NCBI GenBank assembly: GCA_964614915.1
Contig: CAZTNC010000002.1
Location: forward strand, 32,575-96,574
From: an uncultured Thiotrichales bacterium
GTDB taxonomy: Bacteria; Pseudomonadota; Gammaproteobacteria; UBA4575
Reading direction: 5' to 3'
DNA: 64,000 nucleotides
The notes below the pieces were generated by a model. It did not search any database. It was not told the DNA's origin and was given only the letters and a program-made list of their open reading frames with translations. The translations under genes and the position numbers were made by a program. The first letter of the stretch is position 1; each line of letters opens with the position of its first letter. This document shows, piece by piece, positions 2,215 to 12,220 of the stretch.

Positions 2215-3369
2215 ATGATGAAACTTATGATTAACGCAAGGTACTGGTTCGCCCCGTTCCTGATCATCGTTACGATGTTCGGAGTGCTGATGGGCGGCAT
2301 GTTCGTATGGGTCGGACTGCTGCTGCTGGGCGTTGGTATCGTGATCGACACAGCCATGAAGTGGCAAAGTTCCGGTGCAGGATTTGACCGGAACGGCGAA
2401 ACGATGGGTGTGCCCTGGCTACAGAACAGCGTGATGTACGTCATGTTGGGAGTATTCGTACTCCTGCAACTGGCGCTCGCATGGCGTATCTACCAGTACG
2501 TCAATGGCGTCCCGCTGAGTGCCGGATTCGACCATGTCATGTTTGGATTCCTGCCCTATATGAATGGAATCTCCGGACTTGACCTGATCGGTGCCACGAT
2601 ATCCTCAGGCATCTTTGCCGGTATTGGTATTATCTACGGACATGAACTGAGCCATACGAAGGGATTTGCCTTTGTCATTTCCCGCTCAATGATGGCGCTG
2701 AGTGGCAAAGCTCACTTCAGCTATGCGCATGTCTATAACCACCATCTGGAACTGGCGCATGAAGATGACCCTGCCACGTCACCGCGTGGAAGAACCATCT
2801 ACCGACACTATCCATTGGCCGGAATCGGGCAGTCCCGCTTCCTGTACAGAATGGAAAAGCAACGTCTGGAGCGTCTGGGCAAATCCTGGTTCACATGGGA
2901 AAATCGCTGGCTGCGTGGCTATGCCATGAGCCTGCCGACCCTGTTCCTGTTCTGGTTTGCCGGCGGCTGGATTGGTATTGCCTGCCTGTCAGTTGTATGG
3001 CTGATCTCAAACTTTGAGCTCGAAGCCCTCAACTACATGGAGCATTACGGCTTGATTCGAGAGAAGGGACAGCCGATTGACTATCGTCATTCATGGGACA
3101 ACGCAACAGCGTTCACCAGCTGGTTCTTCATCGAGATTGGCCGTCAGGCAGATCACCATGACCGTGGTGAAACCCACTTCTGGGAGCTGGATGACGTAGG
3201 TGCTCCTAACACCGGATGGGGTTACTTCACCTTGTTTGCCATCGCGCTCATTCCGCCGCTTTACCACATGTATATGAAGAAGGAACTGGCAAAGTGGGAC
3301 AGAGAGCGTGCCTCAGAGGGCGAGCGTGCGATTGCTGATCGCCTCAACCGTCAGGTTGGTTACGCTTAA
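2215..3369 (+). CDS. Membrane non-heme di-iron monooxygenase, AlkB/XylM (fatty-acid-desaturase-like) superfamily
   Basis: Several hydrophobic TM segments; His boxes HELSH, HVYNHH, NYMEHYG, QADHH; DPATSPRG motif; C-terminal WDRERASEGER resembles XylM-type enzymes; strong RBS. Confidence 0.9.
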   Translation: MMKLMINARYWFAPFLIIVTMFGVLMGGMFVWVGLLLLGVGIVIDTAMKWQSSGAGFDRNGETMGVPWLQNSVMYVMLGVFVLLQLALAWRIYQYVNGVPLSAGFDHVMFGFLPYMNGISGLDLIGATISSGIFAGIGIIYGHELSHTKGFAFVISRSMMALSGKAHFSYAHVYNHHLELAHEDDPATSPRGRTIYRHYPLAGIGQSRFLYRMEKQRLERLGKSWFTWENRWLRGYAMSLPTLFLFWFAGGWIGIACLSVVWLISNFELEALNYMEHYGLIREKGQPIDYRHSWDNATAFTSWFFIEIGRQADHHDRGETHFWELDDVGAPNTGWGYFTLFAIALIPPLYHMYMKKELAKWDRERASEGERAIADRLNRQVGYA

Positions 3370-3876: not shown

Positions 3877-4557
3877 ATGTTAGGTGATCATTTGGCGGAC
3901 AAAATGAAATTTTATGGGAACCCCTCATGCCTGCGCAGCGCGATGTGCATGTTCACCGCTGCCGAGAAGGGCGTGGACTTAGAGGGCCACTTTGTCGATC
4001 CCAATGGAACGGGTGCGGCTGACGTTCAGGCGCTTGCGCCGCACGGCTTGTTGCCTGTACTGAAGGACGTCGATTTTGTCGTCTGCGGACAACAAGGCAT
4101 CATGTCCTACCTGGACGACAAGGGCTTTGGCCCATCCCTGATTCCCCGTAACGGCGTTGTGCGTGCAATCCATTACATGTGGAATCAGCTCGCCTCCGAT
4201 ATCGCACTGCCTGCGGTTGCAGGATTGATGTCCGGCGATGGGGATGCCGCAGCTGCATCAGGCTGCTTCGATCTTCTGAATTCGCATCTGGCATCCAAGA
4301 GCAATCCTGCGCTGCGCGGTGATTTCATTTGTGGAGCCTTCAGCCTCTCAGATATCCACTGGGCGGCTCTGGCACAAGGCTGCATGCTTGCTGACAGCAG
4401 TGATGTGGTGGAGTCCAGACCAGCTGTTGCAAAATGGTGGGGCCTGGTCAAGTCGCATCCCAGCACCAGCAAGGAAAACATCCGTGGCTATGATGTGCTT
4501 CCGACCAAGACGGACATCAGCGGCAACAGCCTGCGTGGTGTCACGATTAATGTCTAG
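3877..4557 (+). CDS. Glutathione S-transferase-fold protein, paralog 1
   Basis: AAEKGV, LAPHGLLPVL (cis-Pro loop), C-terminal FSLSDIHW N-capping box; GAGG RBS. Confidence 0.8.
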   Translation: MLGDHLADKMKFYGNPSCLRSAMCMFTAAEKGVDLEGHFVDPNGTGAADVQALAPHGLLPVLKDVDFVVCGQQGIMSYLDDKGFGPSLIPRNGVVRAIHYMWNQLASDIALPAVAGLMSGDGDAAAASGCFDLLNSHLASKSNPALRGDFICGAFSLSDIHWAALAQGCMLADSSDVVESRPAVAKWWGLVKSHPSTSKENIRGYDVLPTKTDISGNSLRGVTINV

Positions 4558-4847: not shown

Positions 4848-5054
4848 ATGTATTCATTCAGAGCAATCGTTGTGATGCTGATATTTTCTGCGGCCGTCTA
4901 CTACGGCATGGGTATGCTGGGTCTCACTGCAGCCCATTCCGATCCCTTGATGGCGCTTGCCGGAGCAGTAGTCCTGCTGGTGGCCTTGATCATCAATGTG
5001 TGGATCTACCTCAAGCTCGCTGGCGAGCATCCGTTTAAATGGTTCAAGGAGTAG
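4848..5054 (+). CDS. Small membrane protein (68 aa, 2 predicted TM helices)
   Basis: AGGAGG RBS upstream; two long hydrophobic stretches; amphipathic C-terminus HPFKWFKE. Confidence 0.7.
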   Translation: MYSFRAIVVMLIFSAAVYYGMGMLGLTAAHSDPLMALAGAVVLLVALIINVWIYLKLAGEHPFKWFKE

Positions 5055-5231
5055 AATCCTCCTACTGAAGGAAGCCATTCATAGCGCGCAAGCGCGATCC
5101 TAATAAAAGTGTCAGGCAACTGGGCCTGGAGCAAACAGACGTTTGCCCCAGGCCCAGCCATCCGTTTTGTAAAAAACCGGACAAAAGGGCGCCTGCATCT
5201 TGAGTCTGTCATAGTAGCGACATAACTGACC

Positions 5232-5900
5232 ATGGGACTATTTTCACGCAAAAAGAAAACCACCGAGAAGGTTCGCCTGCTCGGTTACCCCGGGCATGCC
5301 GACACCTGCAAGAGCCTGTACCTGGCCGCTGAAAAAGGGGTCCAGCTGAATCCCGAGCTCATTGACATCCGAAGCGAACAGCATCCCGATGAGGTGCTGC
5401 GGTCACTGTCTCCTTTTGGCAAGCTTCCCTGCCTGGTTGAGGGGGAGGTTGTCACGTCCGGTATCGCGGCCGTTTTGCCCTACCTGGATGTGCGCGGTGG
5501 TGGGCAACCGCTGACGCCTCGCAAGGCCCAACATCTGGGCACCCAGAACTACTGGATTGAGATCGGCGCGCAGCAGGTGCTGCCGCGGATCGAGGCACTG
5601 GTGGATGGCCAGCCCGCAGAGGCAGCCAAAGACGGATTGCAAAAAATCTTTGATGGCATGGATGCACAGCTGCAGGGCAAGGAGTGTATCGTCGGTGCAT
5701 TTTCCTTCGCGGATGTCCACTGGGTGGCTTACCTGCACCTGTTGCAGGTGGCCGGTCAAGACAGCCTCATCGACGAGCGGCCCAACCTGAAAGCCTGGTT
5801 CGAGCACATGAAGGCCCGCAAAGGCAACCACGGCATTGCCTATACGGCGTTGCCGTCGGCAGCGGAGATCCAGCGCAATGAATTCACAAGGGCTGCCTGA
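5232..5900 (+). CDS. Glutathione S-transferase-fold protein, paralog 2
   Basis: AAEKGV, LSPFGKLPCL, FSFADVHW, RPNLKAWF. Confidence 0.82.
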   Translation: MGLFSRKKKTTEKVRLLGYPGHADTCKSLYLAAEKGVQLNPELIDIRSEQHPDEVLRSLSPFGKLPCLVEGEVVTSGIAAVLPYLDVRGGGQPLTPRKAQHLGTQNYWIEIGAQQVLPRIEALVDGQPAEAAKDGLQKIFDGMDAQLQGKECIVGAFSFADVHWVAYLHLLQVAGQDSLIDERPNLKAWFEHMKARKGNHGIAYTALPSAAEIQRNEFTRAA

Positions 5901-5947
5901 ACTGCCGGGCACGTTGGTCAGAACACCCCTTTGGAGCCACAACCAAT

Positions 5948-6730
5948 ATGAGTAATTTGTTTGAGTTCGGTCGTGCTGCTGACCCGACGGCGAGCAGCCA
6001 GTACGGGGCCAGTGGCGATATGAAAAAAACCCAGTACGTGCTGCAACTGCTGGGATTTCCGGGAGATGCAGGAACGCTGAAATGCCTGATCACGGCGGTG
6101 GAAGTGGGCATGGAAACCGATTGCGGAATCCTTGACATCACGGCAGGTGCCCACGAGGCGGGCGAATACCTGCAGGTCTCACCCTTGGGGTTGGTGCCTG
6201 CACTCAAGGAAGCCGATTACATCGTTACCGGAGAGTTGGGCATCATGAGCTATATAGAGGCCCGGGGCCTGGGCAAGCGTCTGCCACCCAAGAATGCAGG
6301 CCTGCTGGCAGCCCAGAACTACTGGGGCGATCTTGCCTGCAGCGAGGCCAAACCGCACGTGGAGGCGATCGTGCAGCAGCGCATTTATGCACCGATGCAA
6401 GGCGAAGACCCTGATGATGCGGCGGTGGACCAGGCCCGTGCAGGGCTTTCCGCGGTGCTGGATGCCCTGGACGGGCAGCTTGCCGGCAAGGAATTCATCA
6501 TCGGAGACTATTCATTTGCCGATATCCACTGGTCGGCCTACATCCATCTCCTGTATGAAGCAGGAGAGGGGGACCTGGTTGATTCCCGCGCCAATATCAG
6601 GGCCTGGTTTGACCGTATCCGGGCACATAAGAGCTATTGCGGGCAGAACATCGTGGCCTATGACCTGCTTCCGAAGCTTGAAGACATCAAAAACAAGCAG
6701 TTACGCTCGGTGGAAGTGTCAGACTATTGA
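5948..6730 (+). CDS. Glutathione S-transferase-fold protein, paralog 3
   Basis: EYLQVSPLGLVPAL, LDALDGQLAGKEFIIGDYSFADIHW, RANIRAWF; GGAG RBS. Confidence 0.85.
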   Translation: MSNLFEFGRAADPTASSQYGASGDMKKTQYVLQLLGFPGDAGTLKCLITAVEVGMETDCGILDITAGAHEAGEYLQVSPLGLVPALKEADYIVTGELGIMSYIEARGLGKRLPPKNAGLLAAQNYWGDLACSEAKPHVEAIVQQRIYAPMQGEDPDDAAVDQARAGLSAVLDALDGQLAGKEFIIGDYSFADIHWSAYIHLLYEAGEGDLVDSRANIRAWFDRIRAHKSYCGQNIVAYDLLPKLEDIKNKQLRSVEVSDY

Positions 6731-6763
6731 TTATCGAGTACCGGTGGGGAAGAATGGCGGATC

Positions 6764-7207
6764 ATGTGGGGATCATCTAAAAATCAGGACCGTCAGATCA
6801 AGGGTGTCACCGGTGCCATTACACCTTTTGTCACGGATACGCTCGCCAGGCTGGACCCGGAAGAAGACCTCGAGGCAGGCTCGATCAAGCGCCGGTATGC
6901 GATTTACTACATATACGGTGCCGTTTTATACTTGGCCGAGTATGATGACCTGGGCAAGGACGTCAAGGCGGTGCTGGTCACCAACATCCTGGGCGAGCAC
7001 ATGAGCGTCGATCAGGCGACGATTGACAAATTGCCGGTGACCGAGGACCATGCAGATGCTGTCAGGGAAACGCAGTTCATGATTGAGGGGGCCAGTGCGC
7101 TGCGCAACTGGCTGACTACCGGGGAGCGCGAAAAGAACGCCGCGTACCTGAAGGAATTGCTGGACAACCCGGATTGTATAACCGGGGAGAGTGAAACGGA
7201 GCACTGA
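6764..7207 (+). CDS. Hypothetical protein (147 aa, acidic)
   Basis: Co-oriented ORF 33 bp after GST paralog 3 with host-like codon usage; no recognisable motif. Confidence 0.65.
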   Translation: MWGSSKNQDRQIKGVTGAITPFVTDTLARLDPEEDLEAGSIKRRYAIYYIYGAVLYLAEYDDLGKDVKAVLVTNILGEHMSVDQATIDKLPVTEDHADAVRETQFMIEGASALRNWLTTGEREKNAAYLKELLDNPDCITGESETEH

Positions 7208-7313: not shown

Positions 7314-7421
7314 ATGTCTGATGGTGGAGGAAATGATGCCATGGTATTCGTGGTTGCAATGGTCTTCGGCGTTGCTGTGATCGTACTCACGTTATATCTG
7401 GCTGGCTTAATTCCTATGTAA
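7314..7421 (+). CDS. Unannotated 35-aa single-pass membrane microprotein MSDGGGNDAMVFVVAMVFGVAVIVLTLYLAGLIPM
   Basis: AAGGAGG RBS (7302-7308) before ATG 7314; one uninterrupted hydrophobic helix; TAA 7419-7421; below the ORF-track length cutoff. Confidence 0.7.
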   Translation: MSDGGGNDAMVFVVAMVFGVAVIVLTLYLAGLIPM

Positions 7422-8152: not shown

Positions 8153-9685
8153 ATGAGAGAAGTTTTTAATCGGTGGTTAGCAATTGCGTTGCTGGCATCG
8201 CTGGCCATTTCAGGGACTGCCTATGCAGGCCCGTACGGCTACGATCTGCACAACGTGCTGGCTCCACGTTCAGCGGGTATGGCGGGTACCAGTATTGCCA
8301 AGCCTCTGGATAACGTGTCGGCAATCTTTGGTAACCCTGCCGCATTGACGGACTGGACGGGAACGGAATTTACGTTCGGTGCTACCTACTACAAGCCTGA
8401 AGTGCGTTTAGATCATGCTGGTGGTTTAGGTCTCCCAACCTACGCTGGCAGTGTACCGCAAGCTACACTTGATCTTCCTGCCGTGGCCCCTAATGATGTG
8501 GTGCCAGGTGTAGCCCTTGGATGTAATAGTGCTGAGGGTTTTTGTATAACTGATTCGTATTTTGATGATGCGGTCAACGGTAACGAGGGCTATATCGTAC
8601 CCCAGGTTGGTGTGACACAGGATCTGCGGCCGTTAGGCTTGCCAGCTGTATTGGGTGCTGGTCTGACAGCAGTTTCAGGTATTGGCGTGGAGTTTCGCCA
8701 TGTGGAAGAAACACTGGGACTGGGAGCTGAGTTCATTGTCCTGGGCGCTAACTTCTCACTTGGTTGGGAGCTCAATGAACAGGTCTCCATCGGTGGTGCT
8801 GCGACAGTAACGTACGCTTATCTAGACCTCGGTCTTGCAGCGACCTCCGGTGTCACGCATGACACTGGGATGCGCGGAACAATAGGTATTACCTATGACG
8901 ACATCGTTCCAGGCACAAGACTGGGCCTGTTCTACATGACGGAACTGCAGCATGTGTTTGATGATATCGTCGCAGTACCAGCTTTTGATCACCAAGACTA
9001 CAATCGTAGTGGTGCGGTAAATAGTGGGGCTGCGCTAGATGGGTATGGAGCCCAAGGACCTGTTCGCTATGCTTCAATCCCTATTGAAGAGCCGCGCACC
9101 ATTGGTATCGGTATCGCCAACGAGACATTCATGGATGGCAACCTGCTGATCGCCGCCGATGTCATGTGGAAGAACTGGGAAGAAGCTGATTTCTGGGGTG
9201 ACGTGTATGAGGACCAAATGGTCTACAGCGTCGGTGCCCAGATGAAGATGGGCAACTGGCGTTTCCGTGCTGGTTATGGCTACGCGGATGATCCAACAGA
9301 CCGTGATGCAGATCACATCAAGGGCCTGCCCGCTGTGTGTTCATCTGCAACTAATTGTAATGCTATTCCAATAGGTAGCCCAGATGGTTCACCATTATTG
9401 CTAGGACAATCTGTGCTGGAATTCCTCCAAGCTTCACAAACAGAGGTAATCTACCGTCATCGTGCTACGTTGGGAGTAGGTTATATGGGATTCCTGGCCC
9501 CGTTCCTGAACATCGACGGCCATGTTGGTGTGCAGTTCAAGGAGCGTAACCATTACAGTGCAGGTACACCGCCGCTTAACGCGACAACCCATCCTGCAGC
9601 GCCCCTTGCAACGGCAACTACTACTGCGGCAGATGTCTGGTCGTGGCATGCAGGCTTTGCACTGACGTGGAACTTCCAGTACTGA
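8153..9685 (+). CDS. FadL/OmpP1/TodX-family outer-membrane channel for hydrophobic substrates
   Basis: Sec signal (AYA cleavage); hatch motif SAGMAGTSIA...SAIFGNPAAL typical of the FadL family; alternating beta-strands; aromatic C-terminal beta-signal WNFQY. Confidence 0.88.
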   Translation: MREVFNRWLAIALLASLAISGTAYAGPYGYDLHNVLAPRSAGMAGTSIAKPLDNVSAIFGNPAALTDWTGTEFTFGATYYKPEVRLDHAGGLGLPTYAGSVPQATLDLPAVAPNDVVPGVALGCNSAEGFCITDSYFDDAVNGNEGYIVPQVGVTQDLRPLGLPAVLGAGLTAVSGIGVEFRHVEETLGLGAEFIVLGANFSLGWELNEQVSIGGAATVTYAYLDLGLAATSGVTHDTGMRGTIGITYDDIVPGTRLGLFYMTELQHVFDDIVAVPAFDHQDYNRSGAVNSGAALDGYGAQGPVRYASIPIEEPRTIGIGIANETFMDGNLLIAADVMWKNWEEADFWGDVYEDQMVYSVGAQMKMGNWRFRAGYGYADDPTDRDADHIKGLPAVCSSATNCNAIPIGSPDGSPLLLGQSVLEFLQASQTEVIYRHRATLGVGYMGFLAPFLNIDGHVGVQFKERNHYSAGTPPLNATTHPAAPLATATTTAADVWSWHAGFALTWNFQY

Positions 9686-9930: not shown

Positions 9931-9982
9931 TTGTGCCTTGCTCCGCAGGACACACATAACAATTGTTGGAGGTTTTATAACG

Positions 9983-10363
9983 ATGGATAAGAAACGTCGT
10001 GATTTTAATAAGCTAATGGTGGCTGCAGCAGCTGGATTGATGGCAGGAAGCCAGACGGTTGCCTTGGCGGGCCACCCAGGCCACGAAGGTTGTCCGAAGC
10101 ATAGCTGTAAAGGCCAAAACGAATGCAAGGGCAAGGGCGGTTGCAAATCAAGCGACAACGGTTGCGCAGGCAAAAACTCATGCAAAGGCAAGGGTGGTTG
10201 TGACCCAGCCCACACGTATGAGAAGCATGCTTGTAAGGGCCAGAATGCCTGCAAATGCCAGGGTGGCTGCAAGTCAGGTGACAACGGCTGTGCCGGTAAA
10301 AATTCATGTAAAGGCAAGGGCGGATGCCAGCTACCGGTTGACCCCAGCCACATGGAAGGATAA
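9983..10363 (+). CDS. Cys-rich MNIO RiPP precursor (BufA2/bufferin-like) with Tat signal peptide
   Basis: GGAGG RBS then ATG 9983; KRRDFNK twin-Arg, h-region, ALA|G cleavage; 14 Cys in repeated CxG(Q/K)NxCKGxGGC units; lies directly upstream of DUF692. Confidence 0.85.
   Translation: MDKKRRDFNKLMVAAAAGLMAGSQTVALAGHPGHEGCPKHSCKGQNECKGKGGCKSSDNGCAGKNSCKGKGGCDPAHTYEKHACKGQNACKCQGGCKSGDNGCAGKNSCKGKGGCQLPVDPSHMEG
10097..10327 (+). repeat. Two 35-codon direct repeats inside the precursor (10097-10201 and 10223-10327)
   Basis: KHSCKGQNECKGKGGCKSSDNGCAGKNSCKGKGGC vs KHACKGQNACKCQGGCKSGDNGCAGKNSCKGKGGC. Confidence 0.9.
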
Positions 10364-10421
10364 GCAGTACCTAGCAACACATTTGTTGTAAAGTTCTGAC
10401 ATTTCCAAAAACGGTTTGAGC

Positions 10422-10459
10422 ATCGACAGGGCTGCTGGATCCAGCATGCCCCTGTCGAT
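10422..10459. repeat. Long stem-loop between precursor and MNIO gene
   Basis: ATCGACAGGG...CCCTGTCGAT arms enclosing the palindrome TGCTGGATCCAGCA. Confidence 0.65.
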
Positions 10460-10515
10460 TGCTTGAATACTTTCTCTGCTGGTAACATGCTTACCAGACA
10501 AATCTGATTCACAAG

Positions 10516-11376
10516 GTGGTTTCTGTGTCTGTAAAAAACCGCTGGGGCTTTCCTGACCTTGGACTCGGAATCGGACTGCGCACAGTCCATTTCAATCACA
10601 TCCTCGAACACTGGCCCAAGGTCGACTGGTTCGAGATCCTGTCCGAGAATTTCATGGACACCGAAGGAAATCCCGTGCGTGTGCTGGACCAGATTGCAGA
10701 ACGCTATCCGATAGTCATGCACGGGGTCTCCATGTCGATTGGCAGCACGGACCCCATCGATTTTGAATACTTCGGAAAGCTGAAGGCCCTGGCCGAACGG
10801 GTGAACGCTCACTGGCTGGGGGACCATGTATGTTGGACCGGGGTGCATGGAAAAAACGGCCACGACCTCTATCCACTGCCCTACAACGAGGAATCCTTGG
10901 CCTTTCTGGTGGACCGGATCCGTACCGTTCAGGATTTTCTTGAGCGTCCCCTGATCCTGGAGAACCCATCGACCTACATGGCTTTTGCAAACTCCACTAT
11001 GCCCGAGGAGGAATTCCTGGCCCGCATGGCCGAGGAGTCGGATTGCGGACTGCTACTGGACGTCAACAACGTCTACGTCACCTGCCGCAATCATGGGCTG
11101 GATTCCAACGCTTACCTGGATGCGATCCCGTACGACCGGGTGGTGCAGATTCACTTGGCCGGACATACCGACAAGGGCACGCATTGCATTGATACGCACA
11201 ACGGCAGAGTCATTGACCCGGTGTGGGACCTGTATGCCGAGGTGCAGCGCCGTGCCGGAAACCGTGCCACGTTGATTGAGTGGGATGCCGACATCCCTTC
11301 GTTTGAAGAGGTCCATGCCGAGGTTTTGAAGGCGGCGCAATTCCGCCACATGACCGAACTGCGTCATGCCTCGTGA
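10516..11376 (+). CDS. Multinuclear non-heme iron oxidase (MNIO, DUF692; BufB/HvfB/MbnB/TglH/ChrH family)
   Basis: [61 protein letters not shown] motifs; GTG start uncertain. Confidence 0.95.
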
Positions 11377-12220
11377 TGATTCGCGGCTGGAGAGCCTCGA
11401 GCAATGGATGTATTCGGTCATCAGCCACCCCGAGGGAGCCGAGGCCGGAGTCAAAGCAAGTTCCAAACCAGGCAGCCAAGCAGCACATGACCTGGAACAA
11501 ACCGTCCTGCCTTCCGATAAGCTGACTCCACTGGAGTGCGTGTCGGTTTACGCCGATATGTACTTCTGGCGGTTCATCGACATCATGTCGGAGGAATACC
11601 CGACGGTGCAGCACATTCTCGGAAAGGAGTTATTCAACCAGGTGGTCAGGGATTATATTGCACGCCATCCCTCAACACACTACAACCTCAACCGCCTGAG
11701 CATCAAGTTCCCGGATTACCTGCTCAAGGAAGCCGGGGAGATTCCACATCAGCCTTTCGTGGCTGCAGTTGCCACGGTTGAACGTGTCATGGAGGATGCC
11801 TTCGATGACCCGCATCGGGAGAAGATCTCCCCGGAAGCGATACAGGGCATCCCGGGGGAGCAATGGCCCGACATCCGGCTGCAGTTCAACCCGGCCCTGT
11901 ATCTGCTGGAACTGGAGTATCCGGTCAATGACTACATGACCGCAGTGTATGAAAACCGCCATATGGACATCCCACAGGCCCAGAAGACATTTGCAGTGGT
12001 GTATCGCTCAAACTACACGGTCTGGCGTGAAGATCTCGACTATGAAAGTTACCTGCTTTTATCGCGGCTCAAGGACGGGGAGTCCTTGGGTGAGGCCTTG
12101 GAGAACTGCACTCAGCAAGAGGGGGTTGATGCCGACAAGATCACGGCCAGCCTGGGCGAGTGGTTTCAGCAATGGACAGCCCAGGAATTCTTCTGCGGTC
12201 TCGAAATCGATTCTGATTGA
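11366..12220 (+). CDS. DUF2063 (BufC/HvfC-like) MNIO partner with RiPP-recognition/DNA-binding-like N-terminal domain
   Basis: Overlaps MNIO stop; [10 protein letters not shown]...[12 protein letters not shown]...Y...HPS, FPDYL, VATVER, EYPV motifs typical of DUF2063. Confidence 0.85.

Follow-up and report, generated by a model that had tools for sequence, protein, structure and literature searches.

Near one end of the window (the whole 64,000-nt stretch of DNA analyzed here) lies an open reading frame (2215–3369, plus strand) for a 384-aa protein, an AlkB/XylM-type membrane di-iron monooxygenase that belongs to what we call the Gln clade and is a candidate dimethylsulfide (DMS) monooxygenase. 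Its sole Pfam match is FA_desaturase (PF00487), and its AlphaFold2 model has a pLDDT of 95.6. Four stretches on the plus strand encode the presumptive metal site. His box 1 (HELSH, from residue 143; 2641–2655) contains His143 and His147, equivalent to AlkB His137 and His141. His box 2 (HVYNHH, from residue 172; 2728–2745) contains His172, His176, and His177, equivalent to AlkB His167, His171, and His172; both boxes are present in 263/263 clade sequences. The third stretch (3016–3051), mapped by alignment, extends from Glu268, at the AlkB channel position Leu263, to NYMEHYG (from residue 273), including Glu276 (AlkB Glu271, an Fe2 ligand) and His277. The last box (IEIGRQADHHD, I306–D316; 3130–3162) retains His314 and His315 and has Gln311 (codon CAG, 3145–3147) at the position of the AlkB Fe2 ligand His311.

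A preliminary description of this DNA had reported the Gln codon alongside the three intact boxes HELSH, HVYNHH, and NYMEHYG, and a check of the translation and residue positions found it exact. It had also stated that the replaced His binds iron in AlkB, as published structural work confirms: in Fontimonas thermophila AlkB, Fe1 is held by His137, 141, 167, 172, and 314, and Fe2 by His171, 272, 311, and 315 together with Glu271, with the substrate methyl closer to Fe2 (Chai et al.; PMC10113152). The only solved relatives found by sequence were two F. thermophila AlkB chains, and alignment to both places Gln311 opposite the first His of LQRHSDHH. By this alignment the protein has eight of the nine AlkB His ligands plus Glu276, with no equivalent of His311. 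This would be a natural AlkB-family site lacking one of nine His residues termed invariant and indispensable (Guo et al.; PMC10110569).

The genes that follow are on the same strand. We compared them with the neighborhoods of 80 genome loci (the best 80 of 351). GST-fold protein 1 (3877–4557) matches Pfam GST_N_2 below the cut-off and belongs to a GST cluster seen in 39/80 loci. A 68-aa two-helix membrane protein (4848–5054), the predicted small subunit of the monooxygenase, had tblastn matches in 43/89 loci and no match in Pfam or NCBIfam. It is followed by GST-fold protein 2 (5232–5900; Pfam GST_C, conserved in some loci), GST-fold protein 3 (5948–6730; GST_N and GST_C), a conserved 147-aa protein of no known family (6764–7207; 14/80 loci), and a 35-aa single-helix membrane ORF (7314–7421; conserved in 14/89 loci, no Pfam match). 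A FadL/TodX-type outer-membrane channel (8153–9685; Pfam Toluene_X, 18/80 loci) is the probable route of substrate uptake. A bufferin-type RiPP cassette (9938–12220, plus strand), composed of a Cys-rich precursor, a BufB above the cut-off, and a partner protein, adjoins the monooxygenase operon in the closest relatives only.

Glutamine 311 across the clade

The preliminary description had asked whether the Gln is conserved in homologs. It was present in 121/121 best homologs (query counted) and, in a later and larger set, in 334/334 close relatives. We collected 422 distinct sequences, dropped 30 that did not cover the region, and compared the remaining 392: all 263 sequences with at least 55% identity had Gln, and all 129 below 55% had His. 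Both Gln codons are in use (CAG in 52 and CAA in 35 of 87 genome loci, some of which come from one genome), which suggests that the residue itself is under selection. A sequencing error or a single mutation is excluded by the Gln of all close homologs and by the use of both codons. Glu276 and the NYxEHYG motif were found in 263/263 clade sequences, and Glu268 in 260/263, compared with 0/129 in the outgroup. Ordinary hydroxylases might also have carried QADHH; XylM of pWW0, both F. thermophila AlkB chains, and two plasmid AlkBs have His instead. Among the plasmid matches listed (40 of 53) there was no clade member, and all 53 were below 60% identity. In a phylum-wide sample the clade was found in 2/401 genomes, the window's own and another of the same class, so this sample gives no test outside the class.

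In quick trees the Gln sequences formed a single branch (support 100, length 1.88), and the distinct subfamily that had been suggested for this protein thus corresponds to a long branch. That branch is shared. One genome of the host family has a paralog at 49% identity with His, and nine clusters at 48%–50% identity, all with His at the 311 position, form a sister group with the same long branch, Glu268 (9/9), and Glu307 (8/9). Support for the Gln group alone was 80, and ∼34 fixed positions separate it from the His-bearing sister group, including 311, Gln85, Asn175, Asp295, Asn296, and His321. Gln may therefore be a late acquisition, or the His group may have reverted. His is kept in both the sister group and the outgroup, so the Gln most likely arose independently of that of the front-end desaturases. 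Earlier suppositions of ours fell to the same sequences. The apparently empty gap between 40% and 60% identity is filled by the His-bearing group at 48%–50%, and Gln does not define the entire long branch; Glu307 was dropped as a Gln-specific compensating ligand because 8/9 His-type relatives retain it, and Glu268 (9/9) likewise.

The His-bearing sister proteins (L133:6733–7941 on G880:C3; P0466–P0474) offer a natural control for the role of the Gln. The single His-type locus seen is a lone gene with no surrounding operon. The window's own genome (G000) also encodes a second, His-type AlkB-like protein of 832 aa (C11:2635–5133, minus strand; 27% identity), apparently a fusion.

Fold, substrate channel, and partner proteins

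The model matches AlkB (PDB 8F6T) with a Z score of 40.9 (rmsd 2.4, 352 aligned residues), and Foldseek gave the same match (E = 2.6e-15, TM 0.79); stearoyl-CoA desaturase SCD1 scored only Z 5.4. With AlkB of F. thermophila (8F6T, 8SBB) the protein thus shares the fold, eight of nine His ligands, the Fe2 glutamate (Glu276), and NYxEHYG. It differs in its low identity (23%–25%), in Gln for His311, in Glu268 and bulkier channel residues, and in its setting: a Fer2/FAD/NAD reductase rather than a rubredoxin among the neighbors, a predicted extra small subunit, and a sulfur/C1 context. Rubredoxin was absent from the common neighbors, as judged in the neighborhoods from called ORFs of at least 90 aa. 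The residues that contact dodecane in AlkB (PMC12262299) map to I133 (A127), I140 (N134), E268 (L263), L269, L272, F305 (L305), I308, F338 (A339), and F341 (L342), with the AlkB residue in brackets, and all are fixed or almost so in the clade. The iron-proximal positions (L269, L272, I308) are aliphatic and the distal ones bulkier or polar, which suggests, from sequence, a pocket shorter and more polar than that of AlkB; distant His-type relatives are often bulkier than F. thermophila AlkB at these positions too.

XylM/XylA of the TOL plasmid pWW0 offers a second comparison. It has the same two-component layout with a Fer2/FAD/NAD reductase and a Glu four residues ahead of the last box, and it hydroxylates an activated methyl group, as we propose by analogy for the Gln clade. 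On the other hand, XylM is only 27% identical, its last box keeps the His, its residue at the Glu276 position is Gln, and it belongs to an aromatic pathway of which there is none near the Gln-clade loci. Placement of the clade with XylM had support of 90 in an open fork and 75 in another tree; long branches meet there, and no well-supported branch joins the two.

The preliminary description had likened the His-to-Gln change to front-end (delta-5/delta-6) desaturases, and a Gln opening the last His box is indeed typical of these enzymes (PMC5785352). Kinship with them, or their chemistry, is not supported: the clade has the AlkB fold and motifs and no cytochrome b5 domain. The cytochrome b5 motif HPGG occurred in 3/263 clade sequences (lengths 258–431), and the query matches PF00487 alone. 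DmoAB of Hyphomicrobium sulfonivorans converts DMS to methanethiol (PMC13360808), the same net reaction that we propose, yet DmoA is a soluble flavin-dependent enzyme of the luciferase family (by NCBIfam family name), whereas ours is a membrane di-iron fold; the two folds are unrelated. The enzyme is thus like AlkB or XylM but has eight rather than nine His ligands, and is neither a front-end desaturase nor DmoA.

The commonest neighbor in the 80 loci was a Fer2/FAD/NAD reductase (40), with GST-fold proteins (39) next. Others were a MerR/B12-binding regulator (21), a FadL channel (18), and, less often, a truncated globin (15), a VWA protein (14), or a CbbQ/NorQ ATPase (9). The usual order starts with the monooxygenase and continues with globin, GST, reductase, 68-aa protein, and FadL. 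Of this set, the window contains the monooxygenase, GST-fold genes (three of them), the gene for the 68-aa protein, and FadL, and the reductase of this genome is elsewhere (C6:81015; 56% identical to the reductase of locus L016), placed after pnp and msrB in the slot that the entire operon occupies in relatives. When the 68-aa protein was co-folded with the monooxygenase, the complex score was 0.87, compared with 0.06 for the best control. The score mark is reached by 116/157 solved complexes and by 2/215 mismatched pairs, a calibration that applies roughly here, where our own alignments were used. At least 98% of contacts were shared between runs, the partner had a pLDDT of at least 88, and the predicted contact lies mainly on enzyme residues 233–255. 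This model supports binding of the 68-aa protein, a putative subunit, to the monooxygenase.

Several other arrangements were noted. The CbbQ/NorQ and VWA genes are divergent from the monooxygenase in nine and 14 of the 80 loci (e.g., L036:4803–7712), are unlinked to it in the window's genome (C8:115261 and C15:13491), and possibly act as metal-insertion helpers. In four loci (L134–L137) a Gln-type paralog at 57%–59% identity comes after two GST genes and before a small protein. The group is divergently oriented to a Crp/FNR-type regulator, some of these loci have the cytochrome oxidase genes COX1 and FixO downstream, and this type is possibly a low-oxygen isoform. A molybdoenzyme of the DMSO-reductase family, below all NCBIfam cut-offs, followed by the reductase, is found near the merR-side copy of the gene in L024 (12061–14382) and 10 other loci.

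Nine genomes have two copies of the gene far from each other, one in the operon and one beside fabA (mostly also merR), that are 99.4%–100% identical in DNA (pairs L024/L025, L026/L028, L033/L041, L040/L044, L042/L043, L046/L050, L058/L066, L060/L061, and L067/L068). This identity is mostly confined to the ORF and its ribosome-binding site, and the median between genomes is 74%. Five further within-genome pairs are 72%–94% identical. The duplicates are probably kept alike by gene conversion or concerted evolution, to which assembly polishing may contribute. Gene conversion is known for pmoCAB and amoCAB. Given their near identity, the regulator-side copy is the same enzyme; we had considered a separate light-controlled enzyme linked to MerR and rejected it on these grounds, while light regulation of that copy is possible.

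Association with methanethiol oxidase, formaldehyde oxidation, and DMS

As a control, we searched one even sample of the class with the enzyme (401 genomes; 16 carriers) and with methanethiol oxidase, MtoX (400 genomes; 31 carriers). MtoX was found in 14/16 carriers of the enzyme, from nine families (G384 counted from a fragment), and in 17/384 noncarriers (Fisher's p = 1e-14 without the window's genome, a value overstated by kinship). The two carriers without a close MtoX were G144 (80% complete) and G381 (97%). Among the 80 loci, the genomes of 50 were searched for MtoX, and each gave a match, 48 of them at 65%–95% identity and the other two at 43% and 30%. All 24 genomes of the host family have both enzyme and MtoX. 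In the genus of a Methylophaga MAG (37 genomes), the enzyme was found in G023, G484, and G486, and MtoX in exactly the same three. That survey returned 47 desaturase-family matches: 30 sequences were compared, one of which was of the query type, loci elsewhere in the set confirmed two more, and for the remaining 15 the judgment used length and profile range alone.

Physical linkage points the same way in some genomes. In G060 a single strand encodes the monooxygenase, globin, and reductase, next mtoX with SCO1/MauG, and after these S-(hydroxymethyl)glutathione dehydrogenase and S-formylglutathione hydrolase. Downstream of the monooxygenase, mtoX is 1.2 kb away in G384 and 4.5 kb in G226; the distance between the two is 7.7 kb in G486 and reaches 22 kb in G484. 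In G226 mtoX adjoins Fhc and formate dehydrogenase genes. Overall, mtoX was within ∼20 kb in 6/16 class-sample carriers and not in the rest, the window's genome included. The formaldehyde-activating enzyme Fae was present in 42 of 47 carrier handles (G032 and G381 being one genome); G060 is without Fae and has the glutathione-dependent formaldehyde enzymes.

In the window's genome, the monooxygenase, reductase, and mtoX are on separate contigs. Its mtoX spans a contig break and is followed by SCO1, MauG, and H4MPT genes; the partial protein reaches 603 bits, where the cut-off set for the whole protein is 650. Fae, SoxB, RuBisCO, and the reductase are also encoded, and neither of the two luciferase-like proteins is DmoA. 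This 1.7-Mb genome further encodes a dimethylsulfone monooxygenase, SfnG (C6:69410–70582), above the NCBIfam cut-off, which is unusual at such a size. SfnG was found in 7/47 carriers, and we rejected it as a general downstream path.

Clade members are present in M. sulfidovorans and M. thiooxydans. According to Table S8 of a transcriptome study, these two are the only ones of six Methylophaga species with mto, and dmoA and ddhA are in none (Kroeber and Schaefer 2019; PMC6548844). The M. thiooxydans member (EEF81234.1, "Fatty acid desaturase domain protein") is 69% identical and has Gln. It is probably the DMS-induced MDMS009_226, matched by identical name alone; genomes of the genus contain two to three desaturase-family genes. 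Table S6 of the same study gives MDMS009_226, which is annotated with that same name, values of 1359 on DMS and 10 on methanol, an induction of about 136-fold. It also reports a NAD-binding oxidoreductase (618 vs. 12) and an HbN globin (601 vs. 21), all three on the minus strand, and mtoX genes up ∼200- and ∼470-fold on DMS (PMC6548844). The porin MDMS009_906 (1469 vs. 18) is on the plus strand and hence is probably not the operon's copy (PMC6548844). Among nine supplements of that paper, the word "desaturase" occurs in one, the transcript table.

Methanethiol is reported as an intermediate in M. thiooxydans, and the study's authors described the first DMS enzyme as missing, suggested a hydrolase or monooxygenase, and read the desaturase gene as serving lipid repair or homeostasis in response to H2O2 (PMC6548844). 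Three reports (PMC6548844, PMC9563715, PMC4611497) state that the enzyme that opens DMS catabolism in Methylophaga and bacteria like it has yet to be identified, and a 2026 review names DmoA as the sole enzyme for DMS to methanethiol (PMC13360808). Our literature search, with most subscription journals outside its coverage, found no paper assigning a DMS function to the Gln clade. Older inhibitor data reportedly favor a methyltransferase for DMS. Boden et al. (2010), as cited in PMC6548844, looked for DMS monooxygenase activity, found none, and suggested a methyltransferase instead. Growth on DMS is reported for M. aminisulfidivorans, which lacks mtoX (PMC6548844). Extracts could lose the activity of a membrane enzyme that depends on a separate reductase and a subunit.

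Proposed reaction and competing readings

Beyond the fold, the residue changes, the conserved operon, and the co-occurrence and linkage with MtoX and formaldehyde oxidation, all shown here, the genomic context suggests a substrate. We consider the enzyme a likely DMS monooxygenase that would hydroxylate one S-methyl group to give methanethiol and formaldehyde. DMS would enter through the FadL channel, and electrons would pass from NADH through the XylA-like Fer2/FAD/NAD reductase to the monooxygenase, with the 68-aa protein as its modeled subunit. O2 activated at the di-iron site would abstract hydrogen from the S-methyl group, and rebound would give a hemithioacetal. This unstable product is predicted to decay to methanethiol and formaldehyde, which MtoX, Sox enzymes, and the H4MPT or glutathione pathway would consume. 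The hydroxylation would follow, by analogy, the established methyl hydroxylation of AlkB and XylM. With Gln311, the ligands of Fe2 may be three His and Glu276 plus a weakly bound amide oxygen or water, and this altered Fe2, with the bulkier, partly polar channel, might suit a small substrate with an activated C–H bond.

Among the points against this reading, induction on DMS could stem from methanethiol, sulfide, or H2O2; related genomes inflate the co-occurrence counts; and co-occurrence fits any substrate that yields methanethiol. The last would hold equally if the substrate were a different small C1 or methylated sulfur compound feeding the same pathway, such as dimethyl disulfide, methanethiol itself, or a methylthio-alkane or acid, whose product the GST-fold proteins would handle. 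That reading would account for the GST-fold genes in 39/80 loci, which otherwise lack an explanation, and the 57%–59% paralogs beside a Crp/FNR-type regulator suggest a range of conditions or substrates. It seems unlikely, as the probable ortholog is induced with DMS as carbon source in an organism in which the DMS step is the stated gap (PMC6548844), and in G060, G310, and G384 the adjacent genes include no GST. The preliminary description had listed S-oxidation among possible chemistries. A sulfur compound was the right direction, while the partners, methanethiol oxidase and formaldehyde enzymes, favor C–H hydroxylation of the S-methyl over a DMSO/dimethylsulfone route. Oxygenation of DMS to DMSO, perhaps to dimethylsulfone, for downstream use or detoxification is thus quite unlikely in our view, even with SfnG in the window's genome, a DMSO-reductase-family molybdoenzyme nearby in 11/80 loci, and the precedent of DsoB and Tmm, oxygenases that make DMSO (PMC13360808): SfnG is found in few carriers and in 0/3 carriers of the Methylophaga genus, MtoX and Fae track the enzyme, and the M. 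thiooxydans intermediate is methanethiol (PMC6548844).

We regard it as improbable that the enzyme desaturates or hydroxylates membrane lipids as a protection from MtoX-made H2O2, close to the published proposal of lipid homeostasis (PMC6548844), or from light under a CarH-like regulator. The fold is that of AlkB rather than SCD1, the partners are a XylA-like reductase and a FadL channel, and the channel positions are bulkier or polar; moreover, 17/31 MtoX genomes are without the enzyme, and a search of the window's genome returned no CarH-like match. The front-end-type Gln (PMC5785352) would fit a lipid role, as would the MerR/B12-binding regulator divergent from the gene in 21/80 loci and fabA nearby in 22/80, although in nine genomes this regulator- and fabA-side copy is nearly identical to the operon copy. 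Finally, many members are labeled "alkane 1-monooxygenase" in source databases, in keeping with an ordinary short-alkane or alkene monooxygenase, or an epoxidase whose epoxide the GSTs open. GSTs open epoxides in the isoprene and styrene pathways. Such a function is highly improbable: no alcohol, aldehyde, or beta-oxidation operon recurred among the 45 commonest neighbor clusters, the tie to MtoX and the induction by DMS would be left unexplained, and no evidence emerged for the epoxidation that the preliminary description had also proposed.

Returning to DMS S-methyl hydroxylation, we lean slightly toward the broader reading that the clade is the missing primary DMS oxidizer of marine Gammaproteobacteria, an eight-His, one-Gln enzyme with a new 68-aa subunit. 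It would be a core gene, with identical duplicates, of a whole small-genome family that includes sponge symbionts and lives on DMS through formaldehyde and sulfur oxidation. If true, it would be a marker gene for a biological DMS sink overlooked by dmoA surveys. It offers a named, expressible candidate for the first DMS step and a specific survey motif, and the His-bearing sister at ∼50% identity is a ready comparison for the Gln site.

Near-identical DNA was found in sponge and reef metagenomes and in nine RNA-labeled runs from four studies. Region 5209–6944 had no RNA-library contig cover in the runs compared, which is uninformative on expression. Sponge RNA-library contigs covered the gene in 4/4 runs compared, which were chosen for containing it and may include DNA, and one such contig spans 2943–3473 with 0 differences.
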